NCBI GenBank assembly: GCA_021784875.1
Contig: JAJYHF010000019.1
Span: 1-39,257 of the forward strand
Reading direction: 5' to 3'
DNA: 39,257 nucleotides
Source of the DNA: a bacterium
Lineage (GTDB): Bacteria > Patescibacteriota > Minisyncoccia > Phycocordibacterales > Phycocordibacteraceae
This document shows positions 1,991 through 36,888 of the stretch, piece after piece. The notes beneath the pieces are model-generated. The model made no database searches and was not told the DNA's origin. It worked only from the letters and a program-made list of their open reading frames with translations. Every line of letters begins with the position of its first letter. Position 1 is the stretch's first letter. The position numbers and the translations under genes were made by a program.

Positions 1991-3154
<1,164 letters not shown>

Positions 3155-3207
3155 ACTCGCCTACTGTACGCCTCCCGAGCCGCTTCGAAAAGTGTTATCT
3201 TTGAGTG

Positions 3208-6645: not shown

Positions 6646-7335
6646 TTACCAACCCATCTTGTCTAATGCTGCCTGGGCGGCTGATTGTTCGGCTTCTTGT
6701 TTTGACTTGCCCTCGCCGCGGGCGACTTCGTCGCCATTGAGGAAGACGCCGACGGTGAAGCGCTTGTCGTGGTCGGGGCCGACTTCCTCGAGCGTCTCGT
6801 AGCGCGGCGTGATGCCCCGCTTCTCCTGCGCGGCCTCTTGGAAGCGGCTCTTGGGGTCGCGGTAGGACTGCTTCTCGATGACCTCGTCGATCTTACGGTA
6901 GAGCTGCCCGGCGATGAAGGCCTCGGCGGCCGCGTAGCCCTGGTCGAGATAGATCGCGCCGATGACCGCCTCGAACGCGTCCGCGAGAATCACATCGCGC
7001 GCGCGGCCGGTGTCGCGCGCCTCGCCCTTCGAGAGGAGGAGATAATCGCTCGTGCCGAGCGCGGCGGCGCTCTCGGCGAGCGAGACGGTGTTGACGAGTG
7101 CAGCGCGATAGGCGGTAAGCTCGCCTTCAGGCTTTGCTGGGAATTTCTTGAAGAGGAAGTCGGTCGCGGCGAGCTCGAGCACCGCGTCGCCGAGGAACTC
7201 GAGCCGCTCGTTGTGCGCGCCCGCGTACTCGCGATGCTCGTTCAGATAGGAACGGTGCGTCAACGCCTCGACGAGGAGGTCGGGATTATGAAAGACGATG
7301 CCGAGCTCCGCGGCGAACGCAGCAAAATCAGGCAT
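6646..7335 (-). CDS. rnc: ribonuclease III
   Basis: HRSYLNE...NERLEFLGDAVLE signature plus a C-terminal dsRBD (DPKSRFQE...GEGKSKQEAEQSAAQAAL). Start chosen at MPDFAAF (cat at 7333-7335). Overlaps the nusB-nudix stop by 8 nt. Confidence 0.9.
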   Translation of the reverse strand: MPDFAAFAAELGIVFHNPDLLVEALTHRSYLNEHREYAGAHNERLEFLGDAVLELAATDFLFKKFPAKPEGELTAYRAALVNTVSLAESAAALGTSDYLLLSKGEARDTGRARDVILADAFEAVIGAIYLDQGYAAAEAFIAGQLYRKIDEVIEKQSYRDPKSRFQEAAQEKRGITPRYETLEEVGPDHDKRFTVGVFLNGDEVARGEGKSKQEAEQSAAQAALDKMGW

Positions 7336-8353: not shown

Positions 8354-8725
8354 TTACGCCCCGCCGCCGAAGCCGCTCCTTGCCTTCGGCCGGCCGCCCG
8401 TCGCCTCTGCCTTGACGCCCTTGGAGCCTTTCACCTCGGCGTTCTGGTGTGCCTCGTGCGCGTGCTCGTGCATATGCTCGTGAGCATGCTTCTCAGCGAT
8501 CGGCTCCGTATCGGGACCCTTCTTGCTCCCGCCCGGGAGCACGATCTTCTTAGCCTTCGGCGCTGCGATCTGCTTGCTGCGGTACATGCCGGTCGTCTCG
8601 TCGAGGCGATGAGGCAGCCGGAGCGCGCCGCTCGTCGCATCCTTGACGATGGTCGTGCTCTCAAGCGCGTGGTGCGACCGGCGGTTGCCGGTGTGACCCT
8701 TGGTATGGCGCATGCGTACTGACAT
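8354..8725 (-). CDS. rpmF: ribosomal protein L32 with a long C-terminal extension (His-rich)
   Basis: N-terminus MSVRMRHTKGHTGNRRSHHAL...LPHRLDETTGMYRSKQI resembles bL32. No cysteines. The tail contains EKHAHEHMHEHAHEAH. TGcTAGGGT lies 6 nt upstream of the ATG. Confidence 0.65.
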   Translation of the reverse strand: MSVRMRHTKGHTGNRRSHHALESTTIVKDATSGALRLPHRLDETTGMYRSKQIAAPKAKKIVLPGGSKKGPDTEPIAEKHAHEHMHEHAHEAHQNAEVKGSKGVKAEATGGRPKARSGFGGGA

Positions 8726-8784
8726 GGGGCTACCCTAGCACGCGCCCGGATAAAAATCAAAGGCGGGAACTCCGGAACGAAGTA

Positions 8785-13797: not shown

Positions 13798-13807
13798 CGC
13801 ACACATT

Positions 13808-13816
13808 TGCTATATT
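13808..13816 (+). promoter_or_regulatory. extended -10 box TGcTATATT, 8 nt upstream of the valS ATG
   Basis: TG at 13808-13809, TATATT at 13811-13816, ATG at 13825. No SD. Confidence 0.45.
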
Positions 13817-13824
13817 CTTAAGCG

Positions 13825-16020
13825 ATGGACGAGAAATTTCTCAAGCCCTACAACCCGCAGGAGACGGAGACGCGGGTCTATGAGGCCTGGGAGACAAGCG
13901 GCTATTTCAATCCGGACAACCTGCCGGAGGGCAAGGAACGGCCGCCATTCACAATCATGATGCCGCCGCCGAACGCGACCGGAATCCTCCACATGGGTCA
14001 CGCGCTCGGCCTCTCTATCCAGGACATCATCATTCGCTTCGAGAGAATGCGAGGCAAGGCGACACTTTGGCTCCCTGGCACCGACCACGCCGCCATCGCG
14101 ACGCAATCCAAGGTCGAGAAGCAGATCAAGAAGGAGGAAGGCAAGAGCCGTCACGACCTCGGCCGCGAGGAGCTCTTGAAGCGCATCGAGACCTTCGTTG
14201 CCGAGAGCCGAGCTACTATCCAGAAACAGGTCCGCGTCATGGGCGCCTCCTGCGACTGGTCACGTGAGGCCTTCACGCTCGATGCGGAACGCAATCGTGC
14301 GGTCAATACGATCTTCAAGCGCATGTACGACGCTGGCCTCATCTATCGCGGCAACCGCATCGTCAACTGGGATCCGAAGGGCCAGACGACGATCAGTGAC
14401 GACGAGATCGTCTACGAAGAGCGCACGGCGAAGCTCTACACCTTCCGATATGCGAAGGACTTCCCCATCCCCGTCGCGACGACACGTCCCGAGACGAAGG
14501 TCGGCGACGTCGCTGTTGCCGTCCATCCGGACGATGCGCGTTATAAGGAGTTCGTTGGGAAGGAATACGACGCCGTCTTCTGCGACGTCCCGATCCATAT
14601 CAAAGTGGTCGCCGACAAAGAGGTCGACCCGACCTTCGGCACCGGCGCGGTCGGCGTCACGCCCGCGCACAGCCAGACCGACTGGGACATCGCCGACCGC
14701 CATGCGCTCTCGCACGAGGTCATCGTCATCAACGAATACGCGAAGATGACCGCCTCCGGCCGCTTAAACGGACTTAAGACGACCGACGCGCGCGAGCAGG
14801 TCGTCGCATGGCTCCGCGGAGAAGGCCTTCTCGAGAAGGAAGAAGACGTAAGGCAGAACATCGCGACTGCCGAGCGCACGGGCGGCATCATCGAGCCCTT
14901 GCCCAAGCTCCAGTGGTGGGTGAACGTGAACAAGGAGGTGCCCGGCCGAGGCAAATCGCTGAAGGATCTCATGCTCGAGCCGGTGAAGGGCGGGAAGATC
15001 ACGATCATCCCTGAGCACTTCGAGAAGACCTACTATCACTGGATCGAGAACCTGCGCGACTGGTGCATCAGCCGCCAGATCTGGTACGGGCACCGCGTCC
15101 CCGTCTGGTACAAGGGCGAGGAGATTCAGGTCGGCGTCGAGCCGGCAGAAGCGGGCTGGGAGCAGGACGAGGACACGCTCGACACCTGGTTCTCTTCCGG
15201 ACTCTGGACCTTCTCGACCCTCGGCTGGCCGGACGATACCGCTGACCTGCGACGCTTCCATCCGACGGATACCATCGTCCCCGCCTATGAGATCCTCTTC
15301 TTCTGGATCGCACGCATGATCCTCATGACCGAGTTCGCGCTCGGCGATATCCCCTTCAAGACGGTGTACCTCACCGGCATCATCCGCGATACGCAGGGAC
15401 GCAAGTTCTCGAAGTCGCTCGGCAACGGCATCGACCCGATCGACATAGCGGCGAAGTTCGGCGCCGACGCTGCGCGCATGGCGCTCGTGGTCGGCAACAC
15501 GCCGGGCACCGACATGCGCATGAGCGAGGACAAGATCAAGGGCTACAAGCACTTCGCGAACAAGCTCTGGAACATCGCGCGGTTCATATTGGAAAATACA
15601 GAAGCCGGCGGAAGCGAGGGTTCGGCAATTCCGGATAGTAAGACTCGGCCGAACGGCCTGGAGCGCTATCCGGAATTGCTGAATCCGAGCGACCGCACGC
15701 ATTTTAAAGCGCTGAGCGCCTTAACCACCGACGTTACTCGCGATATCGAGGAATATCGCCCCTATCTCGCCGCCGAGAAGATTTATCATTATGTCTGGCA
15801 CGAGCTTGCCGACAAGATCCTCGAGGAGTCGAAACCGATCCTGAACGGCACGGATGATGCCGCGCGCGCTTCGCGCGCGCGACTCCTCCTCACACTCCTC
15901 GACACGTCGCTGCGCCTCCTCCACCCCTTCATGCCCTTCGTCACCGAAGAAATCTATCAATCAATGCCCACAAAAGATTCTGATTTCCTCATGATCGCCC
16001 ATTGGCCGGTGGTAGAATAA
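13825..16020 (+). CDS. valS: valine--tRNA ligase (short, no C-terminal coiled-coil domain)
   Basis: HIGH-type PNATGILHMGH, editing-domain TTRPETKVGDVAVAVHPDD, KMSKS-type KFSKSLGN. The protein ends shortly after PFMPFVTEEIYQ...HWP. Confidence 0.9.
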   Translation: MDEKFLKPYNPQETETRVYEAWETSGYFNPDNLPEGKERPPFTIMMPPPNATGILHMGHALGLSIQDIIIRFERMRGKATLWLPGTDHAAIATQSKVEKQIKKEEGKSRHDLGREELLKRIETFVAESRATIQKQVRVMGASCDWSREAFTLDAERNRAVNTIFKRMYDAGLIYRGNRIVNWDPKGQTTISDDEIVYEERTAKLYTFRYAKDFPIPVATTRPETKVGDVAVAVHPDDARYKEFVGKEYDAVFCDVPIHIKVVADKEVDPTFGTGAVGVTPAHSQTDWDIADRHALSHEVIVINEYAKMTASGRLNGLKTTDAREQVVAWLRGEGLLEKEEDVRQNIATAERTGGIIEPLPKLQWWVNVNKEVPGRGKSLKDLMLEPVKGGKITIIPEHFEKTYYHWIENLRDWCISRQIWYGHRVPVWYKGEEIQVGVEPAEAGWEQDEDTLDTWFSSGLWTFSTLGWPDDTADLRRFHPTDTIVPAYEILFFWIARMILMTEFALGDIPFKTVYLTGIIRDTQGRKFSKSLGNGIDPIDIAAKFGADAARMALVVGNTPGTDMRMSEDKIKGYKHFANKLWNIARFILENTEAGGSEGSAIPDSKTRPNGLERYPELLNPSDRTHFKALSALTTDVTRDIEEYRPYLAAEKIYHYVWHELADKILEESKPILNGTDDAARASRARLLLTLLDTSLRLLHPFMPFVTEEIYQSMPTKDSDFLMIAHWPVVE
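16010..16018 (+). promoter_or_regulatory. extended -10 box TGgTAGAAT overlapping the valS stop, 6 nt upstream of the GTG start at 16025
   Basis: TG at 16010-16011, TAGAAT at 16013-16018, GTG at 16025. Confidence 0.4.
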
Positions 16021-23093: not shown

Positions 23094-23141
23094 TGCTCCA
23101 TGATACTACGCCTACGACCTTCCTCCCTAAACATTTTCTTG

Positions 23142-23156: not shown

Positions 23157-23437
23157 GGACTGGGCTAGGCGATCGCTCTGCTAAACATTGCGGAGAGGAA
23201 AGTCCGGACACGGGCTCCGAAAGGAGCAGCAAGGTAGCGGGTAACGCCCGCACGCCGTGAGGCGCGAGGTGCGAACAGAAACGACCCGGTTAAGTCCGGC
23301 TGAAACGGCTAAATCCTTACCCCCGTGCAAGGCCGTGCCCCGAGAGCAATCGAGGGGAGAGCTGCTTGAGGCGCCGAGTGATCGTCGCCCTAGATACATG
23401 GTCGTCCACGACAGAATCCGGCTTATCGGCCCGGTCC
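23157..23437 (+). ncRNA. rnpB: RNase P RNA (bacterial type), compact ~281 nt
   Basis: GAGGAAAGTCCGGAC (P4 5' strand) and ACAGAATCCGGCTTA (P4 3' strand). The ends pair as GGACTGGGC / GCCCGGTCC (P1). End coordinates are approximate. Confidence 0.85.
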
Positions 23438-23450
23438 AAACAGCATGCAT

Positions 23451-23485
23451 CCGCCCGCGCGTTACGCGCGGGCGGTGCGTTTATA
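23451..23485 (+). terminator. hairpin terminator after rnpB
   Basis: CCGCCCGCGCG-tta-CGCGCGGGCGG, an 11-bp stem, followed by TGCGTTTATAT. It abuts the recG TATAAT box (23486-23491). Confidence 0.55.
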
Positions 23486-23499
23486 TATAATGGAAACGC

Positions 23500-25644
23500 A
23501 TGCATCCCGAAGATCCTGTCGAGCGCCACTTCCTGCGCCTGAAGCCGGAACAGAAGCGCGCCCTGAAGAAGCTCGGCATCCACGCCGTTCGCGACCTGCT
23601 CTACCACTTCCCTTCGCGATATGAACGCTCAGGACCTTCGGCTACGATCGCGGGCATCGCGCCAGGCGCCGAAGTGACGCTCTTCGGCACGGTGCGCAAG
23701 CCAGACATCCGTAAGACCTGGAAGAGCCGCCGCCCCGTCGCCGAAGCCTGGCTTGAGGACGCGACCGGCCGCATCAAGATGATGTGGTTCTCGCAGCCCT
23801 ACATCGCCAAGACGCTCTTCGACGGCATGCAGGCCAAAGTGAGCGGTCGCGTCGCCGGCGAGGGTGCGAAGACGTATCTCGCGAATCCTTCGATCGAGAA
23901 AGCGAGTATCGCGCCAGAGACCGCACACGAAACGCTTTTTAATAACGCATCACCTCAGAGTGCCGATATGGAATGGCACCCCGTCTACCCGGAGAGCAGA
24001 GGACTCTCCTCGCTCTGGCTCGCGCACGCGGTCAAGAAGGCCTTCGAGGCGGGCGTCCATGAGCGGATGGAGGATCCGATTCCTACCGATATCCTCGCGC
24101 GCTACAAGCTTCCCTCACTCGCCCCGGCGCTTATCTTCATCCACGCGCCGCAGAAAAAGCCGGATGCCGAGGCGGCGAAGAAGCGCTTCGCTTTCGAAGA
24201 GATCTTCGCCCTCCAGGTCGCGCTCCAGAAGCGCCGCCGCGAGCTCCTCACCGAACGCGCCCTGCCGGTCTCGGTCGATCGCACCGCGCTCGATGACTTC
24301 ATCGCATCCTTCCCCTTCCCGCCCACGACCGCGCAGCAGAAGGCGATCGATGCGATCGCCGCCGACTTTGCGCGCCCGCACCCGATGATGCGCCTCCTCG
24401 AAGGGGATGTCGGGAGCGGCAAGACGGCCGTCGCCGCCGCGACCGCGTACCTCGTCGCGCATTCCGACCTCCAGGTCGCCTACCTCGTCCCGACCGAGAT
24501 CCTCGCAAAGCAGCACTTCTCGACCTTCGTCGCCTATTTTAAGAATCACCCGATCCCGATCGGCCTCATCACGGGGAATGAATGTCGCGTCTTTCCCTCC
24601 CGTGTCCGTTACGAAGAGTCCGCCAAACTCTCGCGCACGACCTTCAGGAAGCGCGTTGCCGACGGCCTCATCCCGATCGTCATCGGCACGCACGCGCTCG
24701 TCGAGCAGTCACTCGCGTTCAAACGCCTCGCCTACGCCATCATCGACGAGCAGCACCGCTTTGGCACCGCGCACCGTCAGCGGCTCGCGACGAAGGGCGA
24801 CGCGACTCCTCATCTCTTATCGATGACCGCGACGCCCATCCCGCGCACGCTCGCTCTCACCCTCTATGGCGACCTCGACCTCACGCTCCTCGATGAGATG
24901 CCGAGCGGACGCAAGCGCATCATCACCGAAATCCTCGGACCGAAGGAACGCGAGCGTGCCTATGAACGCATCCACACCGAACTCGCAACAGGCCGCCAAG
25001 CCTACGTCATCTGCCCGCGCATCGACGAGCCCGATCCGGCGAAAGAACTCGCCCTCCAAGCGAAGAGCGTGAAGGCTGAAGCGGCACGACTGAAGAAAGA
25101 AGTCTTCCCCGACGCCTCGATCGGCATCCTGCACAGCAAGATGAAGCCGCAAGAGAAGGAAGCGGCGATGAACGATTTCGAGAACGGCGAGACGCAGATC
25201 CTCGTCGCAACCTCCGTCGTCGAGGTCGGCGTGAACGTCCCCGACGCGACCGTCATCCTCATCGAGGGCGCCGAGCGCTTCGGCCTCGCCCAGCTCCATC
25301 AGCTGCGCGGCCGCGTGATCCGCTCGACGCATCAGGCGTACTGCTTCGCGCTTCCTGAATCCTTCGGCCCCGCGACCAAGGAACGCATGAAGGCGTTCAA
25401 GGAGGCGAAGAACGGCTTCGAGCTCGCAGAACACGACCTTCAGCTCCGCGGCGCGGGCGAGCTCGCGGGCTCCAGGCAGTGGGGCATCTCCGACCTCGCG
25501 ATGGAAGCATTGAAGAATATGAAGCTCGTCGAAGCCGCCCGCGCAGAAGCCGCCGCCCTCGTCTTGAACGACCCCGAATTAAAAAACCACCCCGCCCTCG
25601 CCTCCCGCGCCCGCACCGCCGACCAGGAAGTGCATCTGGAGTAA
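23500..25644 (+). CDS. recG: ATP-dependent DNA helicase RecG
   Basis: Wedge-domain N-terminus, Walker A LLEGDVGSGKTAVAA, AIIDEQHRFG, QLHQLRGRVIR. TATAAT lies 8 nt upstream of the ATG. Confidence 0.9.
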   Translation: MHPEDPVERHFLRLKPEQKRALKKLGIHAVRDLLYHFPSRYERSGPSATIAGIAPGAEVTLFGTVRKPDIRKTWKSRRPVAEAWLEDATGRIKMMWFSQPYIAKTLFDGMQAKVSGRVAGEGAKTYLANPSIEKASIAPETAHETLFNNASPQSADMEWHPVYPESRGLSSLWLAHAVKKAFEAGVHERMEDPIPTDILARYKLPSLAPALIFIHAPQKKPDAEAAKKRFAFEEIFALQVALQKRRRELLTERALPVSVDRTALDDFIASFPFPPTTAQQKAIDAIAADFARPHPMMRLLEGDVGSGKTAVAAATAYLVAHSDLQVAYLVPTEILAKQHFSTFVAYFKNHPIPIGLITGNECRVFPSRVRYEESAKLSRTTFRKRVADGLIPIVIGTHALVEQSLAFKRLAYAIIDEQHRFGTAHRQRLATKGDATPHLLSMTATPIPRTLALTLYGDLDLTLLDEMPSGRKRIITEILGPKERERAYERIHTELATGRQAYVICPRIDEPDPAKELALQAKSVKAEAARLKKEVFPDASIGILHSKMKPQEKEAAMNDFENGETQILVATSVVEVGVNVPDATVILIEGAERFGLAQLHQLRGRVIRSTHQAYCFALPESFGPATKERMKAFKEAKNGFELAEHDLQLRGAGELAGSRQWGISDLAMEALKNMKLVEAARAEAAALVLNDPELKNHPALASRARTADQEVHLE

Positions 25645-25859
25645 TCTATTCTGCTACTTCTTTCCCTTTGTCCCTCTCCCCAACAAATTTCTTCACCTCG
25701 TCATATCTCAGTTGTTTTGGCCACACCGAACTTCCATTTAACCGTCTTTGGCGTCTTCGACCTTTTCGATCCTTCGATACTCATGGGCGCAGAATACCAT
25801 ATCTTCGACCACTCTCTTTGGACTCGAATCAAGAGCCACGGAAGCAGCCGCATCTTTTG

Positions 25860-25932
25860 TGCGCGCGCCAGGACTCGAACCTGGACATCGGACGTGTATA
25901 AGACGTCTGCTTTACCATTAAGCTACGCGCGC
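25860..25932 (-). tRNA. tRNA with anticodon UAU (candidate tRNA-Ile2-UAU)
   Basis: GCGCGCG/CGCGCGC acceptor, GCTT-AATGGTA-AAGC D arm, perfect GACGT/ACGTC anticodon stem with loop CTTATAC, CCAGG-TTCGAGT-CCTGG T arm. The variable region looks 6 nt long by my parse. Confidence 0.7.
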
Positions 25933-26694: not shown

Positions 26695-28635
<1,941 letters not shown>

Positions 28636-28642
28636 GTTGCGC

Positions 28643-28650
28643 AGTATACT
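28643..28650. promoter_or_regulatory. palindromic AGTATACT: shared, overlapping -10 boxes for divergent ftsH and smpB
   Basis: The 22-nt intergenic region is 7 nt + AGTATACT + 7 nt. TATACT reads on both strands, each 7 nt from an ATG (28635 minus, 28658 plus). Confidence 0.5.
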
Positions 28651-28657
28651 CTTTGGT

Positions 28658-29098
28658 ATGATTCTCGTCGAATACAAGAAAGCTTCCATTAAGTTCGCTC
28701 CGGTCGAGACCTTCTCGGCCGGGCTCGAGCTCACGGGCGGCGAGGTCAAGACGCTCCGCAGCAAGCGGGGATCCCTCGACGGCTCACGCGTACTAATACG
28801 CGGGGGCGAGGCATATCTGGTCGGCATGACTATCCCGCCTTACCAAGCCGCAAACAGCCCAGAGAGCTACGACCCCGAGCGCCCGCGCCGCCTCCTTCTT
28901 ACGAGAGAAGAGATCGCGCACCTCGCCGCCGAAGAAGCGAAGAAGGGATTGACAATCGTCCCGCTCGAGGTATATACTGCCGGCAGGTTCCTGAAGGTGA
29001 AGATCGCGATCGTCCGCGGCAAGGGCAAGGCCGACCGCCGCGAGGACATCAAGAAACGCGATGCGCTGCGCGAAGCCGCACGCGACCTTAAGCGATAA
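28658..29098 (+). CDS. smpB: SsrA-binding protein SmpB
   Basis: FSAGLELTGGEVKTLR...GEAYLVGMTIPPY...RPRRLLLTREEI...GLTIVPLEVY...KVKIAIVRGKG. Located directly upstream of the tmRNA. Confidence 0.9.
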   Translation: MILVEYKKASIKFAPVETFSAGLELTGGEVKTLRSKRGSLDGSRVLIRGGEAYLVGMTIPPYQAANSPESYDPERPRRLLLTREEIAHLAAEEAKKGLTIVPLEVYTAGRFLKVKIAIVRGKGKADRREDIKKRDALREAARDLKR

Positions 29099-29147: not shown

Positions 29148-29567
29148 GGGGGTGACCGGCTTTGACGGTCTGCTCTTTGAAAGACGTGCGACGCAGTGCA
29201 CGCCCGCTCACCACTACAAACTGGCGGGTACCAAACGTGCCAAGGACACCTTTGCACGCGCGACGAAGTCCCCTTACTTCGGTAAGGTCGGCGACCTCGC
29301 GTTCGCCTACGCGACGGCTCGAGCGTAATGCTCGCCTCCGCCTAGCGCGACGTCTGCTCTCGACCGGCGCTCACAGCGTCGAGAGCGGGCGGAATCTCCT
29401 GTGAGCTAGAGCAGCGGCCGTCCGCCCGCTTCTCGAAACTTCGGACTCGTCGCGGAGCGGTTTCGTCCCGATTTTCACGCCCGCGATCAGACTTCAATCA
29501 GGACTATGCGTCGTAGAAGCGCTTTCAAAGCCAGATTCGGACTCGGGTTCGATTCCCGACATCTCCA
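29148..29567 (+). ncRNA. ssrA: tmRNA (SsrA)
   Basis: 5' GGGGGTGACCGGCTTTGACGG. 3' GGACTCGGGTTCGATTCCCGACATCTCCA. The acceptor GGGGGUG/CAUCUCC includes the G3-U70 pair. Internal tag frame ends at TAA 29326-29328. Confidence 0.9.
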
Positions 29568-29577
29568 CAGCAATAAA

Positions 29578-29616
29578 CACGAAGGTCTGCATGAGCGGGC
29601 CTTCGTGCGTTTTTGT
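29578..29616 (+). terminator. intrinsic terminator after ssrA
   Basis: CACGAAGG...CCTTCGTG stem (29578-29585 / 29600-29607) followed by CGTTTTTGT. Confidence 0.7.
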
Positions 29617-29627
29617 ATACTTCCCGC

Positions 29628-30176
29628 ATGAAGCCCTTACTCCGATCCTGGTTCGCCGGTGATGCGGTCGCGCTGGCGCCGAAGCTCTTGGGAAAGATCG
29701 TGAAGAAAGGCTCCTGCACGGGCATCATCGTCGAGACGGAAGCATACACGACCGATCCCGCGTCTCACGCCCATAGCGTGACGACTCGCTCCCGCATCAT
29801 GCGCGACACCTACGGCCACTGGTACGTCTATTTCACCTACGGCATGCACTGGTGTGTGAACGTGACGACGAATAAGGGCGGCACCGGCGCCGTCCTCATC
29901 CGCGCGGTCGAACCGATCGATGGTATCACCGCCATGAAGCGACGAAGGAAAACTGAGGCGCTCCGCAACCTCTGCAGCGGCCCGGCCAAGTTCTGCCAAG
30001 CTTTCGGCGTCACGGGCAAAGAGAACCAGACATTGGTTGGAGGCGACTTCGCGATCTTCGACGCGCCAGAGATACCGATGAACCAGGTTGCCACGTCAGT
30101 CCGGGTCGGCATCAACGGCAGGTCCGATCTCCCTTGGCGCTTCTTCATCAAGGACAATCCGTTCGTGAGCCGCTAG
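29628..30176 (+). CDS. mpg: DNA-3-methyladenine glycosylase (Mpg/AAG family)
   Basis: APKLLGKIV...GIIVETEAYTTDPASHAH...GHWYVYFTYGMHWCVNV. TATACT (29616-29621) lies 6 nt upstream of the ATG. Confidence 0.85.
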   Translation: MKPLLRSWFAGDAVALAPKLLGKIVKKGSCTGIIVETEAYTTDPASHAHSVTTRSRIMRDTYGHWYVYFTYGMHWCVNVTTNKGGTGAVLIRAVEPIDGITAMKRRRKTEALRNLCSGPAKFCQAFGVTGKENQTLVGGDFAIFDAPEIPMNQVATSVRVGINGRSDLPWRFFIKDNPFVSR

Positions 30177-30186
30177 CGCATCCGGT

Positions 30187-30215
30187 TTGCCCGCCCTCCG
30201 ATTCCCTGCTATCGT
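30187..30215 (+). promoter_or_regulatory. sigma70-like promoter, leader copy A: -35 TTGCCC, 17 nt, extended -10 TGcTATCGT
   Basis: TTGCCC at 30187-30192, TGc at 30207-30209, TATCGT at 30210-30215. Copy B has the same layout and nearly the same sequence. Confidence 0.5.
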
Positions 30216-30222
30216 CCGCTTC

Positions 30223-30272
30223 GGGTAGGCCCGGTTTCTGGGTCTGAATGTTGTTTTACAGGGAGGTAGAGA
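30223..30272 (+). promoter_or_regulatory. conserved 5' leader copy A: hairpin (GTTTC loop) + AATGTTGTTTTACA + GGGAGG SD
   Basis: Stem AGGCCC/GGGTCT (30227-30232 / 30240-30245), loop GGTTTCT, 14-mer at 30247-30260, SD at 30261-30266, ATG at 30273. Confidence 0.6.
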
Positions 30273-31244
30273 ATGGAGACGTTTACCGACCGCCTTCAGA
30301 AGGCGATGCGGGTAAAGGAGAGTGTTTTGTGCGTCGGGTTTGATCCGCAGCTCAAGTTCATACCGCCGCACCTCATCAAGGAAGCGATAAAATTCAAAGG
30401 GAGAACGTGGGAGGCCTTGGAATACTGCTTCCTTAAGTTCAACCTTGGAATCATGGACGCGGTCGAGCCGTACGCGGCAGTGATCAAGCCGCAGGCTGCG
30501 TTCTACGAGGCGAGCTATCAGTTGTGGCACGCGCTCGAGCAGACTATAAACTGGGCTGAAAAGTGTGAGCTCCTCGTCATCAAAGACGCCAAACGTCTGG
30601 ACGGAGGCGATACAGCGGATGCATATGCCCAGACTCACATTGGCATGGTGCCCTTCTTCGACGGAAAGATGATCAAGTCCCCACTCCGTACGGATGCAGT
30701 GACTATCGGCGGATCAATCGGCGAAGATTGCATCTCCAGATTCGTAAAGGAGATGAAGGCGCACGGAACCGGCGGATTCGTGGTCGACAAGACATCGTTC
30801 AAGCCGAACTCCGTCATAGAGCAGCTCGTGACGGAAAATGGTCTCAGCGTCTGGGAAGAACTCGCCTATTACGTCTCCATGTGGGGTGAAGGGACTGAAG
30901 GCGAGAACGGCTACCGAAACCTTGGCGTCGTCATGGGAGCTACATATCCCGAAGACGCTCTTAGGATGCGGAAGATTCTGCCGAATGCTGTCATGCTTGT
31001 TCCTGGTTACAGCCTGCCGGACAGCATCGGTCAAGGCGGAACAGCAGACGAAGCAGTCGTTTCCTTCAACGACGACGGCTTCGGTGCAGTGGTCAACGCC
31101 TCGCGAGCGATTATTGCCGCGTGGCAGAAGGGACCTTTCGCATGCGATCCAAAGGATTTCGCCAAGGCAGCAGGACAAGCCGCAAAAGCCGCTCGCGACG
31201 ATCTGAACGAGGCACTCAAGCGCGCGGGCAAGTATCCCTTCTAA
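30273..31244 (+). CDS. pyrF: orotidine-5'-phosphate decarboxylase-like protein (type 2 PyrF family)
   Basis: LCVGFDP, IKPQAAFYE, DAKRLD (DxKxxD), DAVTIGG, VVMGAT, and PG...GQGG with an insert. Lower G+C than the flanks. Confidence 0.6.
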   Translation: METFTDRLQKAMRVKESVLCVGFDPQLKFIPPHLIKEAIKFKGRTWEALEYCFLKFNLGIMDAVEPYAAVIKPQAAFYEASYQLWHALEQTINWAEKCELLVIKDAKRLDGGDTADAYAQTHIGMVPFFDGKMIKSPLRTDAVTIGGSIGEDCISRFVKEMKAHGTGGFVVDKTSFKPNSVIEQLVTENGLSVWEELAYYVSMWGEGTEGENGYRNLGVVMGATYPEDALRMRKILPNAVMLVPGYSLPDSIGQGGTADEAVVSFNDDGFGAVVNASRAIIAAWQKGPFACDPKDFAKAAGQAAKAARDDLNEALKRAGKYPF

Positions 31245-31265
31245 ATATCGATCATTCGGTTCGAA

Positions 31266-31299
31266 AAGGCCACGACCTGTGTCGCGGCCTTTGCCTTTT
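31266..31299 (+). terminator. hairpin terminator after the pyrF-like gene
   Basis: AAGGCCACGAC-ctgt-GTCGCGGCCTT (10 of 11 bp) followed by TGCCTTTT. Confidence 0.5.
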
Positions 31300-31306
31300 C
31301 TGTCGC

Positions 31307-31335
31307 TTGCTCGCTACCCTCTTCCTTGCTATCGT
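31307..31335 (+). promoter_or_regulatory. sigma70-like promoter, leader copy B: -35 TTGCTC, 17 nt, extended -10 TGcTATCGT
   Basis: TTGCTC at 31307-31312, TGc at 31327-31329, TATCGT at 31330-31335. Confidence 0.5.
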
Positions 31336-31341
31336 CCGTGC

Positions 31342-31393
31342 GGAGCCCTGTTTCGGGGCTAAATGTTGTTTTACACGGGAGGAAAAGAAAAAG
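31342..31393 (+). promoter_or_regulatory. conserved 5' leader copy B: hairpin (GTTTC loop) + AATGTTGTTTTACA + GGGAGG SD
   Basis: Stem AGCCC/GGGCT (31344-31348 / 31356-31360), loop TGTTTCG, 14-mer at 31362-31375, SD at 31377-31382, ATG at 31394. Confidence 0.6.
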
Positions 31394-31795
31394 ATGAGTG
31401 GCGCGAAAAAAGTAGATGACTTCAACACAGGGAAAACTCTGAATGAGCTGGCGAGGACGTATGCACATGTTGTCCTGGAAAAGTTCACGAAGAGGGACAA
31501 ATTTCTTGGCTTCGAAAGCTTGTATGGTGAAGACATAATCGTAGGTCCCACCGCAATGGTTTTGGACTTGTTGTGCGGGAATGTAAACCCCCCGATTCAC
31601 TTTGGCTCAAAGATCGAGCCCGGCAACCGTGTCCTCATTATGAACGGCACGACTTCCGCCGAGCAGGCAGCAAGACTTGTCGAATATGTTACGAGATCAA
31701 ACGCTATCCCAGTCGGTCTCGTTTCTTTCCCTTTCTCTGGCGCTAAAGAATTCGAACAGAAGTATGAGGTGCCAGTACATATCGTTACTCTGTAG
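31394..31795 (+). CDS. small phosphoribosyltransferase-like protein with degenerate PRPP-binding loop
   Basis: 133 aa. RVLIMNGTTSAEQA aligns to the type I PRTase motif (hydrophobic x4, acidic x2, then TTG-type loop), but with NG in place of the acidic pair. The C-terminus GLVSF...EVPVHIVTL is PyrE-like. The call is from motif resemblance only. Confidence 0.4.
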   Translation: MSGAKKVDDFNTGKTLNELARTYAHVVLEKFTKRDKFLGFESLYGEDIIVGPTAMVLDLLCGNVNPPIHFGSKIEPGNRVLIMNGTTSAEQAARLVEYVTRSNAIPVGLVSFPFSGAKEFEQKYEVPVHIVTL

Positions 31796-31845: not shown

Positions 31846-33631
31846 AGCCTCGACGTGCGCGGGCGCGGTCGGTCTCGGTGAGGTACTGCTTGCGCAGGCG
31901 CACGGACTTGGGCGTGATCTCGAGATACTCGTCGTCGGCCATCACCTCGAGGCCGCGTTCGATCGAGAGTTCGTAGGGCGGCACGAGGTCGATCGCCTCG
32001 TCGGTACCCGAGGCGCGGACGTTCGTGAGATTCTTGTTCTTCGTCGGGTTCACCATCATCTCCTCGCCCTTGCTTGTGTTGCCAATCACCTGTCCCTCGT
32101 AGACTTCGGTCGCGGGCGTGATGTAGAGGACCCCACGTTCCTGGAGACCCCAGAGCGAATAGCCGAGCGCCTTCCCCGTCGCCATCGAGATCATCGAGCC
32201 GACCTGTCGCTTCTTTATCTCGCCTGCATAGGGCTTGAAGCCGACGAAGCGCGACGAGAGGATGCCCTCGCCTTTCGTGTCGATGATGAACTGGTTCTTG
32301 TAGCCGAGGAGGCCGCGCGTCGGGCCCTGGAGCGTGAGGCGCACGCCGCCGCCCTCGGGCCGGAGGTCCTGGAGAACGAAGGCGCGAAGCCCGAGCTTCT
32401 CGATGATCGCACCCTGAAACTCCGAAGGCGTATCGATGACGACCTCCTCGAAGGGCTCGAGCTTCTTCCCTTCTTCCTCGCGCGTGATGACCTGCGGCTG
32501 CGAGACCTGGAGCTCGTAACCCTCGCGACGCATATTCTCGAGCAGGATCGCGATGTGGAGCTCGCCGCGGCCGCTCACTTTGTACGCATCCGCGCTCGAG
32601 AATTCGACGCGCAGGCCGACGTTGACCTCGAGCTCCTTCTCGAGCCGGTCGCGGATCTGGCGCGAGGTCACGAACTTCCCTTCCCGCCCGGCGAAGGGCG
32701 AGTTGTTGACAAGGAAATCGAGCGTGATGGTCGGCTCGTCGACGGCAATCGCCGGCAAGGGCGCGGCCGCAGGGTCGGTCGTCACCGTCTCGCCGATGTA
32801 GATGTCGGGGAGGCCGGCGATAAGGACGATGTCGCCGGCCGACGCCTCCGCCGCCTCGACGCGATCGAGACCTTTGAAGGTGAAGAGCTTGGTCGTCCTC
32901 CCCGTCCGCGCCTCTCCGTCCGGCTTCTTGACGATGACATTCTGGTTCGGCTTCACGGTGCCTTGGTAGATGCGCCCGACCGCCATCCGACCGAGGAAGT
33001 TGTCATAAGCGAGATTGAAGGGCTGGAGCACGAGCGGCGCGCTCGCGTCCGTCCCGACGTTCGCCGCCGGGACCTTCTCAAGGATCGTATCGAGGAGCGG
33101 CGTGAGGTCCTTCCGTTCATCGTCAAGTTTCTTCATCGCGACGCCTTCGCGCCCGATCGCGTAAACCACCGGGAAATCGCTCTGTTCGTCGGAAGCGCCG
33201 AGCTCGAGGAAGAGCTCGAGGACCTGTTCCTCGCAGCGGCCTGGGTCGGCGGCCGGCTTGTCGATCTTGTTCACGACGACGATGGGCTTCAACCCGAGTT
33301 CGAGCGACTTCTTCAGCACGAAGCGCGTCTGCGGCATCGGCCCCTCAGCCGCGTCGACGACGAGCAGCACCGAGTCGATCGAGCGCAACACGCGCTCGAC
33401 CTCGCTTCCGAAATCGGCGTGCCCCGGCGTGTCAACGATATTGATCTTCGTGCCCTTATACTCGACTGCCGTATTCTTGGAGTAGATGGTGATGCCGCGC
33501 TCGCGCTCGAGCGTGTTGCTGTCCATCGAGACGCCCTCGGCGACGGCGCCCGTCTGGCGCATGATGGCGTCGGTCAAGGTCGTCTTCCCGTGGTCGACGT
33601 GCGCGATGATAGCGATATTCCGGATTTCCAT
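31844..33631 (-). CDS. typA: translational GTPase TypA/BipA
   Basis: [38 protein letters not shown]. Start chosen at MEIRN (cat at 33629-33631). Confidence 0.95.
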
Positions 33632-33635
33632 AAAT

Positions 33636-33662
33636 GAAAAACGCCCGTGGGCGATGCGGGCA
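33636..33662 (-). terminator. hairpin + U5 downstream of the Nramp gene, immediately upstream of the typA ATG
   Basis: Minus strand: (T)GCCCG-catcgccca-CGGGC(G) followed by TTTTTCATTT then ATG. A TATAAT box (33667-33662) abuts the 5' arm. Confidence 0.45.
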
Positions 33663-33679
33663 TTATACGACAAAACATT

Positions 33680-34969
33680 CTAGACCGCCAGCGACGCGAT
33701 AGCGGCAATGCCGGAGACGGCCATGAAGGCGACCGTGACCCAGCCGAGCCAGGCAGTGAGACGAGAATTGCGATGCTCGCCCACGACCGACGCATTGCCC
33801 GAGAGCTTCACGACAAAATAGAGGATGAACGGCGCAGCGATGCCGTTCGCGACCGCAGAATAGATGAGCATCTTGATCGGATTGAGGTGCATGAAGTTGG
33901 CGGCGATGCCGAGGACCATTGAGATGATAATGACGCTATAGAAGGCGCGAGCCTGCTTGAGCTTGCGCGAGAGGCCGACACGCCAGCCGAAGCTTTCGGA
34001 AAGCGCATACGCGGTCGATCCGGCAAGAACCGGTACCGCGAGAAGACCGGTTCCGACGATCCCGAGCGTGAAGAGGAGGAATGCGAACTCGCCGAATGGC
34101 TTCAGAGCAAGCGCAGCCTGGTCCGCCGTCTGAATGTCATGGATGCCGTGCACATAGAGCGTTCCGGCACACGCTGCGATGATGAAGAAGGCGACCGCAT
34201 TCGAGAAGGCCATCCCGCTCCAGACGTCGGTGCGCATCGCGCGTATGGCCTCGGCATGGTTCCCATGCCGCCGCGCATGGACCGTCTTCTCGCCCCGGGC
34301 GACCTCTTCCTCGACTTCTTGCGCCGTCTGCCAGAAGAAGAGATAGGGCGAGATGGTCGTCCCGAGGATCGCGCAGACGAGGAAGATCTGGCCGCGCGAG
34401 AAGGAGAGCGAGGGCACGAGCGCATGGCTCATCACCTGCCCCCAGTCGAGATGAACCACGAGAGCGACCGCGACATAGGAGAGGAGCGCGAGCGAAAGAT
34501 ATTTGAGATATTTCGCGTAGCGCGCATAGGTGGTGTAGATCTCGAGGAAGAGGATAAGCGCGCCGAAGAACACGACAAGCGGCCCGACTGCGAGCCCCGG
34601 CATCACGAGACGCGTCGTAGCGGCCATCGCGCCGAGGTCGGCGGCGATGTTGAAAGTGTTCGCGAAGAAGAGGATGGCCGTGATGCCATAGAGAACGTAT
34701 CGCGGATAATGGTGGCGTATGTTCGCCGCGAGTCCTCTCCCCGAGACGACGCCGATGCGCGCGCACATCTCTTGCACCGTCGCCATGAAGGGATAGGTGA
34801 GAATCATCGTCCAGATGAGGCCGAGGCCGTACTGCGCACCAGCCTGCGAATACGTAATGTTCCCCGAAGGATCGTCATCAGCCGCGCCGGTCACGAGCCC
34901 CGGCCCGAGCGTATGCCAATACGCCGCCGCGTCTTCCTCGATCTTCTTCGCTTCCGCCTTCATCTCCAT
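33680..34969 (-). CDS. Nramp-family divalent metal cation transporter
   Basis: GPGLVTGAADDDPSGNITYSQAGAQYG motif and about 11 TM. Start moved to MEMKAEAKK (34969) because TATACT lies 6 nt upstream of it. Confidence 0.8.
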   Translation of the reverse strand: MEMKAEAKKIEEDAAAYWHTLGPGLVTGAADDDPSGNITYSQAGAQYGLGLIWTMILTYPFMATVQEMCARIGVVSGRGLAANIRHHYPRYVLYGITAILFFANTFNIAADLGAMAATTRLVMPGLAVGPLVVFFGALILFLEIYTTYARYAKYLKYLSLALLSYVAVALVVHLDWGQVMSHALVPSLSFSRGQIFLVCAILGTTISPYLFFWQTAQEVEEEVARGEKTVHARRHGNHAEAIRAMRTDVWSGMAFSNAVAFFIIAACAGTLYVHGIHDIQTADQAALALKPFGEFAFLLFTLGIVGTGLLAVPVLAGSTAYALSESFGWRVGLSRKLKQARAFYSVIIISMVLGIAANFMHLNPIKMLIYSAVANGIAAPFILYFVVKLSGNASVVGEHRNSRLTAWLGWVTVAFMAVSGIAAIASLAV

Positions 34970-35065
34970 CGCTCCAGTATACGCGAGCGGCATCCCGAGA
35001 CGGAAAGAATCCCCCGCCCCGCGCGTATGAAGTATCCGTGAGCGTTAGCAGATAACCGAATATCC

Positions 35066-36110: not shown

Positions 36111-36836
36111 TCAGATACCCTTCTTCAGATAGTGCTCGAGCGTGTAGATCCAGTCCGCCTCGGCGGCGGGGTTCTGCTTCTTCTGAGCGAGCAGCCACTC
36201 GAGATAGTTCCGGTCGCTCGTCGCCACCTCCTCGAGCCTCTTCCCCGCGTATTTGCCGAAGCGGATGGTGGTGAAGAGCAAGGGGCGCGCCGAGACCGCG
36301 AGCATGGCTCCGAGCGCGGCTTCTTCCGTCCCGTGCCGCTCCTTCATCTTGACCAAGAGCCGCTCGAAGAGCGCTTCGAGCACGAGCACGTCGCCCCACG
36401 CGTCGTGCGCCTCCGCCTCGATCTCGAGACCTAAGAGATAACGGAGATACTGGAGGCGGTAATTAGGCAGCGTGTCCTCCGGGTCGAGCGCGTAGGCGAC
36501 CTTGTAGGTGCAGATAACCTGCTTCGACTGGATGCCCTCGCGGCCGAGCATCGCGAGATCGAAGGCCGCGTTGTGCGCGACGGCGATCATCTCCTTGTTC
36601 TCGAAGAGGTCCTTCACGCTCGCGTACTCCGGCGCGTCCTCGAAGGACGGCTTTCTTTCCACCATCTTCTCGGTGATGTGGTGAATCGCCATCGACTCGA
36701 TGGAGATGGGTACCGGCGGCTTATAGAGCGCATTCACGAGCGGCTCATCGACGTAGCGCTCCTTGATCGCAAGCTGACAGAGGCGATCCTTCTCGCCGTT
36801 CCCCGTCGTCTCCGTGTCGAAGAAGATGATGCTCAT
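36111..36836 (-). CDS. DEDDh 3'-5' exonuclease (DnaQ/ExoX-like) with a small C-terminal domain
   Basis: IIFFDTETTG (Exo I), AHNAAFD (Exo II), HDAWGDVLVL (Exo III). C-terminal FGKYAGKRLEEVATSDRNYLEWLL. TGgTAGAAT (36843-36851, minus strand) lies 6 nt upstream of the ATG. Confidence 0.8.
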   Translation of the reverse strand: MSIIFFDTETTGNGEKDRLCQLAIKERYVDEPLVNALYKPPVPISIESMAIHHITEKMVERKPSFEDAPEYASVKDLFENKEMIAVAHNAAFDLAMLGREGIQSKQVICTYKVAYALDPEDTLPNYRLQYLRYLLGLEIEAEAHDAWGDVLVLEALFERLLVKMKERHGTEEAALGAMLAVSARPLLFTTIRFGKYAGKRLEEVATSDRNYLEWLLAQKKQNPAAEADWIYTLEHYLKKGI

Positions 36837-36888
36837 CCCGCCATTCTACCAGCCGACACCCTATAATAGGAATCAGCGCTGGCGATCC

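Follow-up and report, generated by a model that had tools for sequence, protein, structure and literature searches.

Two copies of a promoter and hairpin-bearing leader before pyrF and a PyrE-like gene: a possible reused expression cassette

What is served by two similar but diverged leaders standing before two adjacent genes of the UMP pathway? The window (the whole stretch of DNA analysed here, 39,257 nucleotides of an uncultivated, ultrasmall CPR bacterium) contains one such leader, copy A, at 30187-30272 upstream of pyrF, and a second, copy B, at 31307-31393 upstream of a 133-aa truncated PyrE-like ORF. Each carries a promoter, a hairpin, a U-rich box and a Shine-Dalgarno (SD) sequence; more specifically, a -35 TTG, a 17-nt spacer, an extended -10 element (TGC TATCGT), a GC hairpin, the sequence AAUGUUGUUUUAC and GGGAGG are common to both. 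The features in question, predicted or observed, are these:

30187-30215, + strand: copy A promoter, TTGCCC, 17-nt spacer, TGC TATCGT
30226-30246, + strand: copy A hairpin, UAGGCCCGG-UUU-CUGGGUCUG, 9 bp
30246-30259, + strand: copy A U-rich box, GAAUGUUGUUUUAC
30261-30266, + strand: copy A Shine-Dalgarno, GGGAGG
30273-31244, + strand: pyrF, type-2 orotidine-5'-phosphate decarboxylase (TIGR02127, 3e-53; PF00215)
31265-31302, + strand: pyrF intrinsic terminator, AAGGCC(A)CGAC-CUGU-GUCG(C)GGCCUU, then UGCCUUUUCUG
31307-31312, + strand: copy B -35 element, TTGCTC, 17 nt 5' of the -10
31327-31335, + strand: copy B extended -10, TGC TATCGT, first part of TATCGTCCG
31336-31343, + strand: copy B GC-rich discriminator CCGTGC and inferred start (~G31342)
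31344-31360, + strand: copy B hairpin, AGCCCUG-UUU-CGGGGCU, 7 bp, 3-nt loop
31361-31374, + strand: copy B U-rich box, AAAUGUUGUUUUAC, also readable as AUG UUG UUU UAC
31377-31382, + strand: copy B Shine-Dalgarno, GGGAGG
31394-31795, + strand: 133-aa PyrE-like ORF with a degenerate PRPP loop, VLIMNGTTS

Every block that a preliminary description had reported for copy B is found in the sequence where it was placed. The block TATCGTCCG lies at 31330-31338 in B and 30210-30218 in A, AAATGTTGTTTTAC lies at 31361-31374 in B and GAATGTTGTTTTAC at 30246-30259 in A, and AATGTTGTTTTACA does not differ between the copies. The spacer from the upstream block to the stem is indeed 5 nt in B, but it is 9 nt in A rather than the 8 nt reported, and the similarity reaches beyond the blocks noted at that time to take in the -35 TTG and the 17-nt spacer. 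Overall identity is ~77% and patchy: the box agrees at 13/14 positions and the -10 block at 12/12, and the stem strands and spacer differ. Such a pattern bears out the view that the two are not a very recent plain duplicate. In the whole window the box pattern is matched twice, against 0.02 matches expected.

The block TATCGTCCG had been taken for a piece of conserved RNA; it corresponds instead to the -10 hexamer and discriminator of a predicted extended -10 promoter. Both 31307-31335 and 30187-30215 match the sigma-70-type, extended -10 form (-35 TTGnnn, a 16-18 nt spacer, TGn and TAnnnT). Measured against the consensus for such promoters, the leader -10 hexamer agrees at 4/6 positions and the -35 at 3-4/6; the likeness lies in the TTG, the 17 nt and the TGC TATCGT, as in other promoters of the window. 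Those of the RNA genes have the same form, reading TGG TATAAT (RNase P RNA), TGC TATAGT (tRNA-Val) and TGT TATGAT (tRNA-Ile), and before all three a TGnTATnnT stands 6-12 nt upstream of the mature 5' end; the -10 boxes of the many leaderless-looking genes are likewise of this form. Since the pattern by itself is no rarity (the window has 3 matches, where our own estimate would expect ~3.6), the case for a promoter rests on conservation and on this within-genome comparison. Among related leaders, which we refer to by locus number, TTG, TG and TAnnnT keep a constant register in A, B, L021, L108, L022, L023, L027 and L033 as the spacer sequence varies, with the -35 TTG itself kept in A, L021, L108, L023, L027 and L033.

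Three side observations concern the RNA genes of the window. The tRNA-Ile gene (25859-25932, - strand) has the anticodon UAU, a lysidine-modified CAU anticodon being the more usual route to the reading of AUA. The RNase P RNA match (23157-23441) spans only 285 nt of a 367-position class A model, and the RNA therefore looks like a reduced form. The tmRNA gene (29148-29570) lies directly 3' of smpB.

At other genes in the window the -10 is followed by the start at a distance of 6-9 nt, which makes ~G31342 (B) and ~G30223 (A) the likely sites of initiation. The hairpin would then probably begin 2-4 nt from the 5' end of the transcript; it lies 8-16 nt from the -10, a gap that narrows to 8-12 nt among A, B, L021 and L108, the four close leaders. 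The predicted initial sequences are GGGU, GGAG, AGAU and GGAG. Start-site switching of the pyrC/pyrD type and reiterative transcription of the pyrG/upp type were considered and rejected, there being no conserved run at the inferred start. With 16 nt between the end of the hairpin and the SD, the SD is also not inside the 5' hairpin, as pyrC/pyrD-type control would require. A leaderless ORF running through the copy B hairpin, from GTG at 31338 to an ATGA at the main start, was rejected as well, because the GTG is only 2 nt past the -10 and has no counterpart in copy A.

The hairpin itself repays closer inspection. Its stem is correctly described, pair by pair, as three C-G pairs followed by G.U in A versus G-C in B and then by G-C in A versus A-U in B. 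The 7-nt loops of the preliminary description do not hold up, since the two outer bases on each side also pair and leave a loop of 3 nt (UUU). The hairpins are therefore 7 bp in B and 9 bp in A, where the stem gains two further pairs at its base. Of the additional inner pairs, one is an unchanged G-C, and the other shows a second double change (G.U in A, U.G in B). Five of the 14 inner stem positions are not the same in A and B, with 7/7 pairs kept. Simulated random substitution keeps all seven in 0.6-3% of trials (P ~0.006-0.03), and the earlier judgement that two copies carry no statistical meaning was thus too pessimistic.

Across the four close leaders pair 7 is variously G-C, G.U or A-U, and either G.U or U.G stands beside the loop-closing G-C. 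A larger alignment had been named as the means of deciding whether the stem is maintained, and in a set of eight leaders, consisting of these four and four distant pyrF-region leaders (three in L027, one in L022), pairing is kept. Here 90.6% of cells are paired, a percentage that is inflated by the choice of hairpins by eye at the equivalent position and comes from few sequences; double changes occur in 5/8 pairs, and the observed pairing score is reached by 0/500 shuffles, with no slid register near it. RNAalifold, applied to the four close leaders from the inferred start to the ATG, returns the hairpin as the sole helix, and in single folds it is the only stable element, with box and SD unpaired; neither approach yields an alternative fold in the leader. 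The energies of the leader folds are no better than those of shuffles (z -0.4 to -1.6). Where pairs within the stems of the four close leaders and of L027a are imperfect, they are all G.U on the + strand, which fits an RNA helix better than a DNA palindrome. Taken with the compensatory changes in A, B, L021, L108 and the distant pyrF leaders, these G.U-type changes support selection on the hairpin for pairing as RNA, read from the + strand. The original proposal of selection on an RNA hairpin plus a single-stranded conserved block survives as regards stem pairing and box conservation, and fails as regards TATCGTCCG, which is not RNA.

The U-rich box behaves differently from the stem in that its sequence is conserved, well above the level of its flanks. 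A, B and L021 share it unchanged (13/13) despite differing promoter spacers and SD regions, and L109, whose leader carries AAUGUUCUUCUAC, agrees with it at 11/13 positions. The box is single-stranded in all folds. In every leader it lies 1-5 nt from the SD region, with a distance from the hairpin that ranges from 0 to ~15 nt; because this spacing varies while the box stays near the SD, hairpin and box look like separate modules. In 50 related loci, two of the nine matches to the box with at most two mismatches fall within the 1.2% of positions that lie just upstream of pyrF. Elsewhere in the window AATGTTT-like words number 3 against 1.1 expected, which is not convincing. Box-like words (GAATGTTTT, AATGTTT) at 33672-33680, 23129-23135 and 23183-23189, all on the - strand, sit in the typA promoter spacer and near the murJ leader, and are not clearly above chance. 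The GAATGT of the window-type box is the reverse complement of the ACATTC in the L027 type; with no partner in the same leader, we treat this match as coincidence.

How widely is this leader distributed? The relatives of the window are labelled Moraniibacteriota or Kaiserbacteria, and hairpin and box are kept in the leaders of three other genomes, L021, L108 and L109. In L021 the leader lies upstream of an 80%-identical pyrF, and in L108 upstream of a 147-aa PyrE-like gene. In L109, a Kaiserbacteria MAG with an mpg 76% identical to that of the window, it lies between mpg and a gene for another type of OMP decarboxylase, which shares only 21% identity with the window's. The window-type leader is known from only four genomes or contigs and one variant. 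U runs are also present 5' of the SD in other pyrF leaders (L009, L022). A more distantly related cassette is found four times within 4 kb of L027 (1400-1535, 2200-2335, 2860-3000 and 4740-4870), where it consists of a terminator, a promoter, a hairpin and then AUUGUACAUUU (GAACAUUC in the 2200-2335 copy); these cassettes precede zinc-ribbon small ORFs (once), two 168-aa ORFs whose N-terminus faintly resembles OMP decarboxylase, and pyrF-pyrE.

A covariance model of hairpin and box (R1), run over 67 sources comprising 369 kb, found only A, B, L021 and L108, and missed L109, L033 and the L027 type even with filters off; a weak antisense match inside the pyrF of L016 was taken as chance. The exact pattern of -10 block plus box gave 0 matches in JGI metagenomes. 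As to the organization of L108 (286-1369), a contig of the same sample, an ABC-transporter ATPase frame runs into mpg as a single 327-aa ORF. Behind mpg come a mosaic leader, in part A-like and in part B-like, and then the PyrE-like gene; pyrF is missing. The arrangement could be either a deletion between two leader copies or an assembly chimera.

The genes behind the two copies bear on what the leaders might be for. The pyrF terminator (-17.1 kcal/mol, z = -3.1, tail score 3.0) separates pyrF from copy B. The 133-aa ORF downstream of copy B is without a match in Pfam and NCBIfam, and a separate homolog search returned only the ORF itself (one with mpg gave nothing above 76% identity); the clade is thinly sampled. 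An exhaustive phmmer search from the ORF led to a 147-aa homolog, P0122, and to a 214-aa protein, P0124 (BLASTP 3e-15). The latter matches the OPRTase structures 1sto/1oro at 1e-18 to 1e-19, as well as TIGR00336, and since this homolog matches solved orotate phosphoribosyltransferases we regard the ORF as a truncated relative of PyrE. The PRPP loop of the ORF has lost its two acidic residues; the 133- and 147-aa proteins have NG/DG there for DD. A pN/pS of ~0.39 between the ORF (31394-31795) and its L108 homolog (1369-1812) indicates purifying selection, and the truncated protein is a possible pseudoenzyme. Its AlphaFold model has a pLDDT of 46, too low for use in a fold search. No pyrE-like gene is present at this position in L021, the closest relative; in L023 the order is pyrF, pyrE and a convergent typA, and in L027 too pyrE comes after pyrF. 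Within pyrF itself a perfect palindrome, CGCCTTCAGAAGGCG, occupies window positions 30285-30299 (codons 5-9, RLQKA), with a CAA centre in L021 (3969-3983); having no U tract after it, it is probably a by-product of coding.

In the last 17.9 kb of the window an SD at working distance precedes 2/16 called protein genes, pyrF and the PyrE-like ORF only. At least 11 protein genes have no SD and a TAnnnT box 6-9 nt before the ATG, among them recG, smpB, ftsH, mpg, the Nramp gene and the RNase T gene, and it is on this account that they look leaderless. Most heads of transcription units here are of this type, and the region thus appears to be dominated by leaderless mRNAs. Heads of the leaderless type can be seen at 23480-23500, 28620-28660, 29610-29628, 34963-34990, 36836-36850, 13805-13825, 3154-3205 and 8725-8760, and the divergent ftsH and smpB starts apparently have in common one palindromic -10 (AGTATACT). 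A literature search on riboswitches or leaderless mRNAs in CPR/Patescibacteria turned up nothing relevant. Another hairpin-bearing leader is that of typA, where a -10 box is followed by a small GC hairpin (CGCC-CACG-GGCG), UUUUUCAUUU and then the AUG, with no SD. This leader is kept in three genomes:

33631-33665, - strand: typA leader in the window
6774-6840: typA leader in L021
4142-4203: typA leader in L023

Its loop is GAGA in L023, its U tract is as conserved between the window and L021 as the box is, and as a whole it resembles a terminator right behind a promoter (tail score 4.3).

With these observations in hand we tentatively favor a reading in which a reused promoter and 5'UTR expression cassette is present twice, copy B being the second. 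The extended -10 promoter (TTGCTC, 17 nt, TGC TATCGT) would start the mRNA at ~G31342; a GC hairpin would fold within the first 2-4 nt of the RNA; and the single-stranded U-rich box would come next, abutting the strong GGGAGG SD that precedes the ATG. Near the 5' end, the hairpin may shield the transcript from 5'-end-dependent decay, and the U-rich box may keep the ribosome-binding region open and load ribosomes in the manner of an S1- or standby-type enhancer. Copying of the cassette would have provided both pyrF and the adjacent PyrE-like gene with their own promoter and leader, the pyrF terminator lying between the two transcription units, and the outcome would be constitutive, efficient expression of SD-led genes in a mostly leaderless-looking genome. 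Direct support extends to the blocks, their conservation in relatives, the maintenance of the stem at the RNA level and the absence of an alternative fold.

Stabilizing stem-loops at the 5' terminus and AU- or U-rich S1-type enhancers are familiar from the leaders of E. coli ompA and B. subtilis aprE and ermC. The present leaders resemble these in having a hairpin near the inferred 5' end whose sequence may vary provided that pairing is kept, an unpaired U-rich tract immediately before the SD, and no alternative fold; they differ in that the box is conserved in sequence and not just in composition, and in a host that is mostly leaderless-looking. A generic cassette is favored by the shared plan of typA (-10, 5' hairpin, U tract, AUG), by the four related cassettes of L027, one of them before zinc-ribbon ORFs unrelated to pyrimidines, and by the U runs before the SD in other pyrF leaders. 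On the other hand, the exactness of box conservation in L021 and L109 exceeds what a generic U-rich enhancer needs, and the restriction of SD-led genes, among the 16 called, to a UMP-pathway pair, together with the placement of the L109 leader before a different type of OMP decarboxylase, hints at a pyrimidine-specific role.

That hint leads to the explanation we rank second and consider doubtful, namely that hairpin and U-rich box form an attenuator or pause site with UTP-dependent read-through, or the site of a trans-acting regulator (PyrR-like logic), and so couple expression of the orotate-to-UMP genes to pyrimidine supply. Elsewhere, pyr genes are reportedly controlled in a typical case by U-rich leaders and hairpins. 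Here UMP-pathway genes stand behind both copies and are the only SD-led, long-leadered genes among the 16. A loose terminator scan flags both hairpins, and the leader stays with pyrF across genomes: the box is upstream of pyrF in L021 and L109 and, as a variant, in L033, even though the decarboxylase of L109 is so distant from the window's. Several features speak against an attenuator. Three to five A-rich bases (AAAUG or UGAAUG) intervene between stem and U run, the leader tail scores (0.57-1.41) fall below those of terminators in the same DNA (1.54-4.51), the variable spacing of hairpin and box is out of keeping with such a device, no antiterminator or competing fold is predicted, and no ORF passes through the hairpin in copy A. 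The sign of the feedback would also be wrong, in that low UTP would give more termination unless a ribosome were coupled. The leaders of E. coli pyrBI and pyrE are reported to be UTP-sensitive attenuators (Turnbough and Switzer, 2008). Our leaders are like them in belonging to pyr genes and in their GC hairpin, U-rich RNA and a U tract readable as Phe codons, and unlike them in having no leader ORF through the hairpin, a U run set off from the stem and no ribosome-coupling geometry.

The likeness to PyrR binding loops (RF00515) consists in a stem-loop in pyr leaders that is repeated before successive pyr cistrons, but neither a terminator/antiterminator pair nor a pyrR gene is seen. An Rfam scan of the leader gave nothing relevant at the gathering score or at E up to 10, RF00515 and hence any PyrR site included. 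The PyrR-site consensus is ARUCCAGAGAGGYU, and it is absent from the leader. The PyrE-like protein was considered as a PyrR-like regulator and rejected, having a near-neutral pI of 6.3, no RNA-binding signs and no other supporting feature. Nor does the leader have the marks of a riboswitch, consisting as it does of a single 7-9 bp hairpin with no multi-helix aptamer and no Rfam family. Pyrimidine control in general is further opposed by the L027 cassette, which also precedes non-pyrimidine genes. A more particular form of the idea, which we think unlikely, is that the hairpin and the AAUGUUNUUNUAC box constitute a lineage-specific pyrimidine-responsive leader of CPR orotate-to-UMP genes, acting through the U-rich mini-ORF of 4 codons (MLFY/MFFY) next to the SD or through a box-binding factor.

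Could the box itself be translated? A, B and L021 have AUG UUG UUU UAC (MLFY), L109 has MFFY-stop, L108 MFFI-stop and L033 a GUG-started MLFF, and one might imagine a tiny uORF whose translation, or ribosome stalling beside the SD, sets initiation at the main ORF. The start codon is kept in 6/6 leaders (AUG becoming GUG in L033), the differences between the window and L109 boxes fall at the third positions of codons 2 and 3, and in L108 and L109 a stop codon comes just before the SD. Its relation to the main ORF, however, is not constant. In A and B the two overlap in different frames, with uORFs of 31 and 18 codons respectively; in L021 and L033 the frame is shared; and in L108 and L109 the uORF has just 4 codons. 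The upstream AUG has no accessible SD, the sole G-rich run being tied up in pairing as the 3' side of the hairpin; the leaders of L027, L022 and L023 have no AUG there; and two or three substitutions underlie the argument from codon positions. We regard such a uORF as improbable.

More improbable still is an account at the level of DNA, according to which the box or the hairpin palindrome is an operator bound by a repressor, or the repeat is a neutral leftover of duplication without function beyond the promoter. The L027-type box AATTGTACATTT is nearly palindromic, and the copy A promoter region (30179-30219) is 40/40 identical to that of L108 where synonymous sites of mpg differ by 36%, an identity that may stem from a DNA site or from gene conversion. 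Against this stand the compensatory stem changes, the confinement of imperfect pairs in the four close leaders to G.U on the sense strand, and a window-type box that has no dyad. Neutral drift, or conversion of the whole unit, is likewise a misfit to the patchwork in which box and -10 block are conserved and stem and spacer differ.

Least probable of all is a long-range helix in which the pyrimidine tract TTCCTTG (31322-31328) pairs with CACGGGAG (31374-31381) and masks the SD in upstream-started or read-through transcripts: both elements are present as the preliminary description had it, complementarity is seen in 4/4 close leaders (a C-G pair in A becoming U-A in L021), the L021 duplex (-22.9 kcal/mol) is reached by 0.2% of shuffles, and with no terminator between mpg and copy A a read-through RNA may carry the tract there, but the copy B duplex (-9.4 kcal/mol) is equalled or bettered by 93% of composition-preserving shuffles and so is no better than composition predicts, those of A (18%) and L108 (28%) are unremarkable, the tract lies within the promoter spacer upstream of the inferred start, a strong terminator stands 5' of copy B, and the outer helix of RNAalifold is placed differently and weakly supported.

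What would these leaders mean for the biology of the group? Were the leader pyrimidine-responsive, it would represent a new type among the mechanisms of pyr control, and the lineage-specific version, if true, would be the first cis-regulatory RNA for nucleotide metabolism described in the CPR radiation. Even with no response to pyrimidines, the expression cassette that we tentatively prefer would be a useful native expression tool for these organisms. Gene control in the CPR/Patescibacteria is almost unstudied, and this locus offers a concrete, testable promoter and leader.
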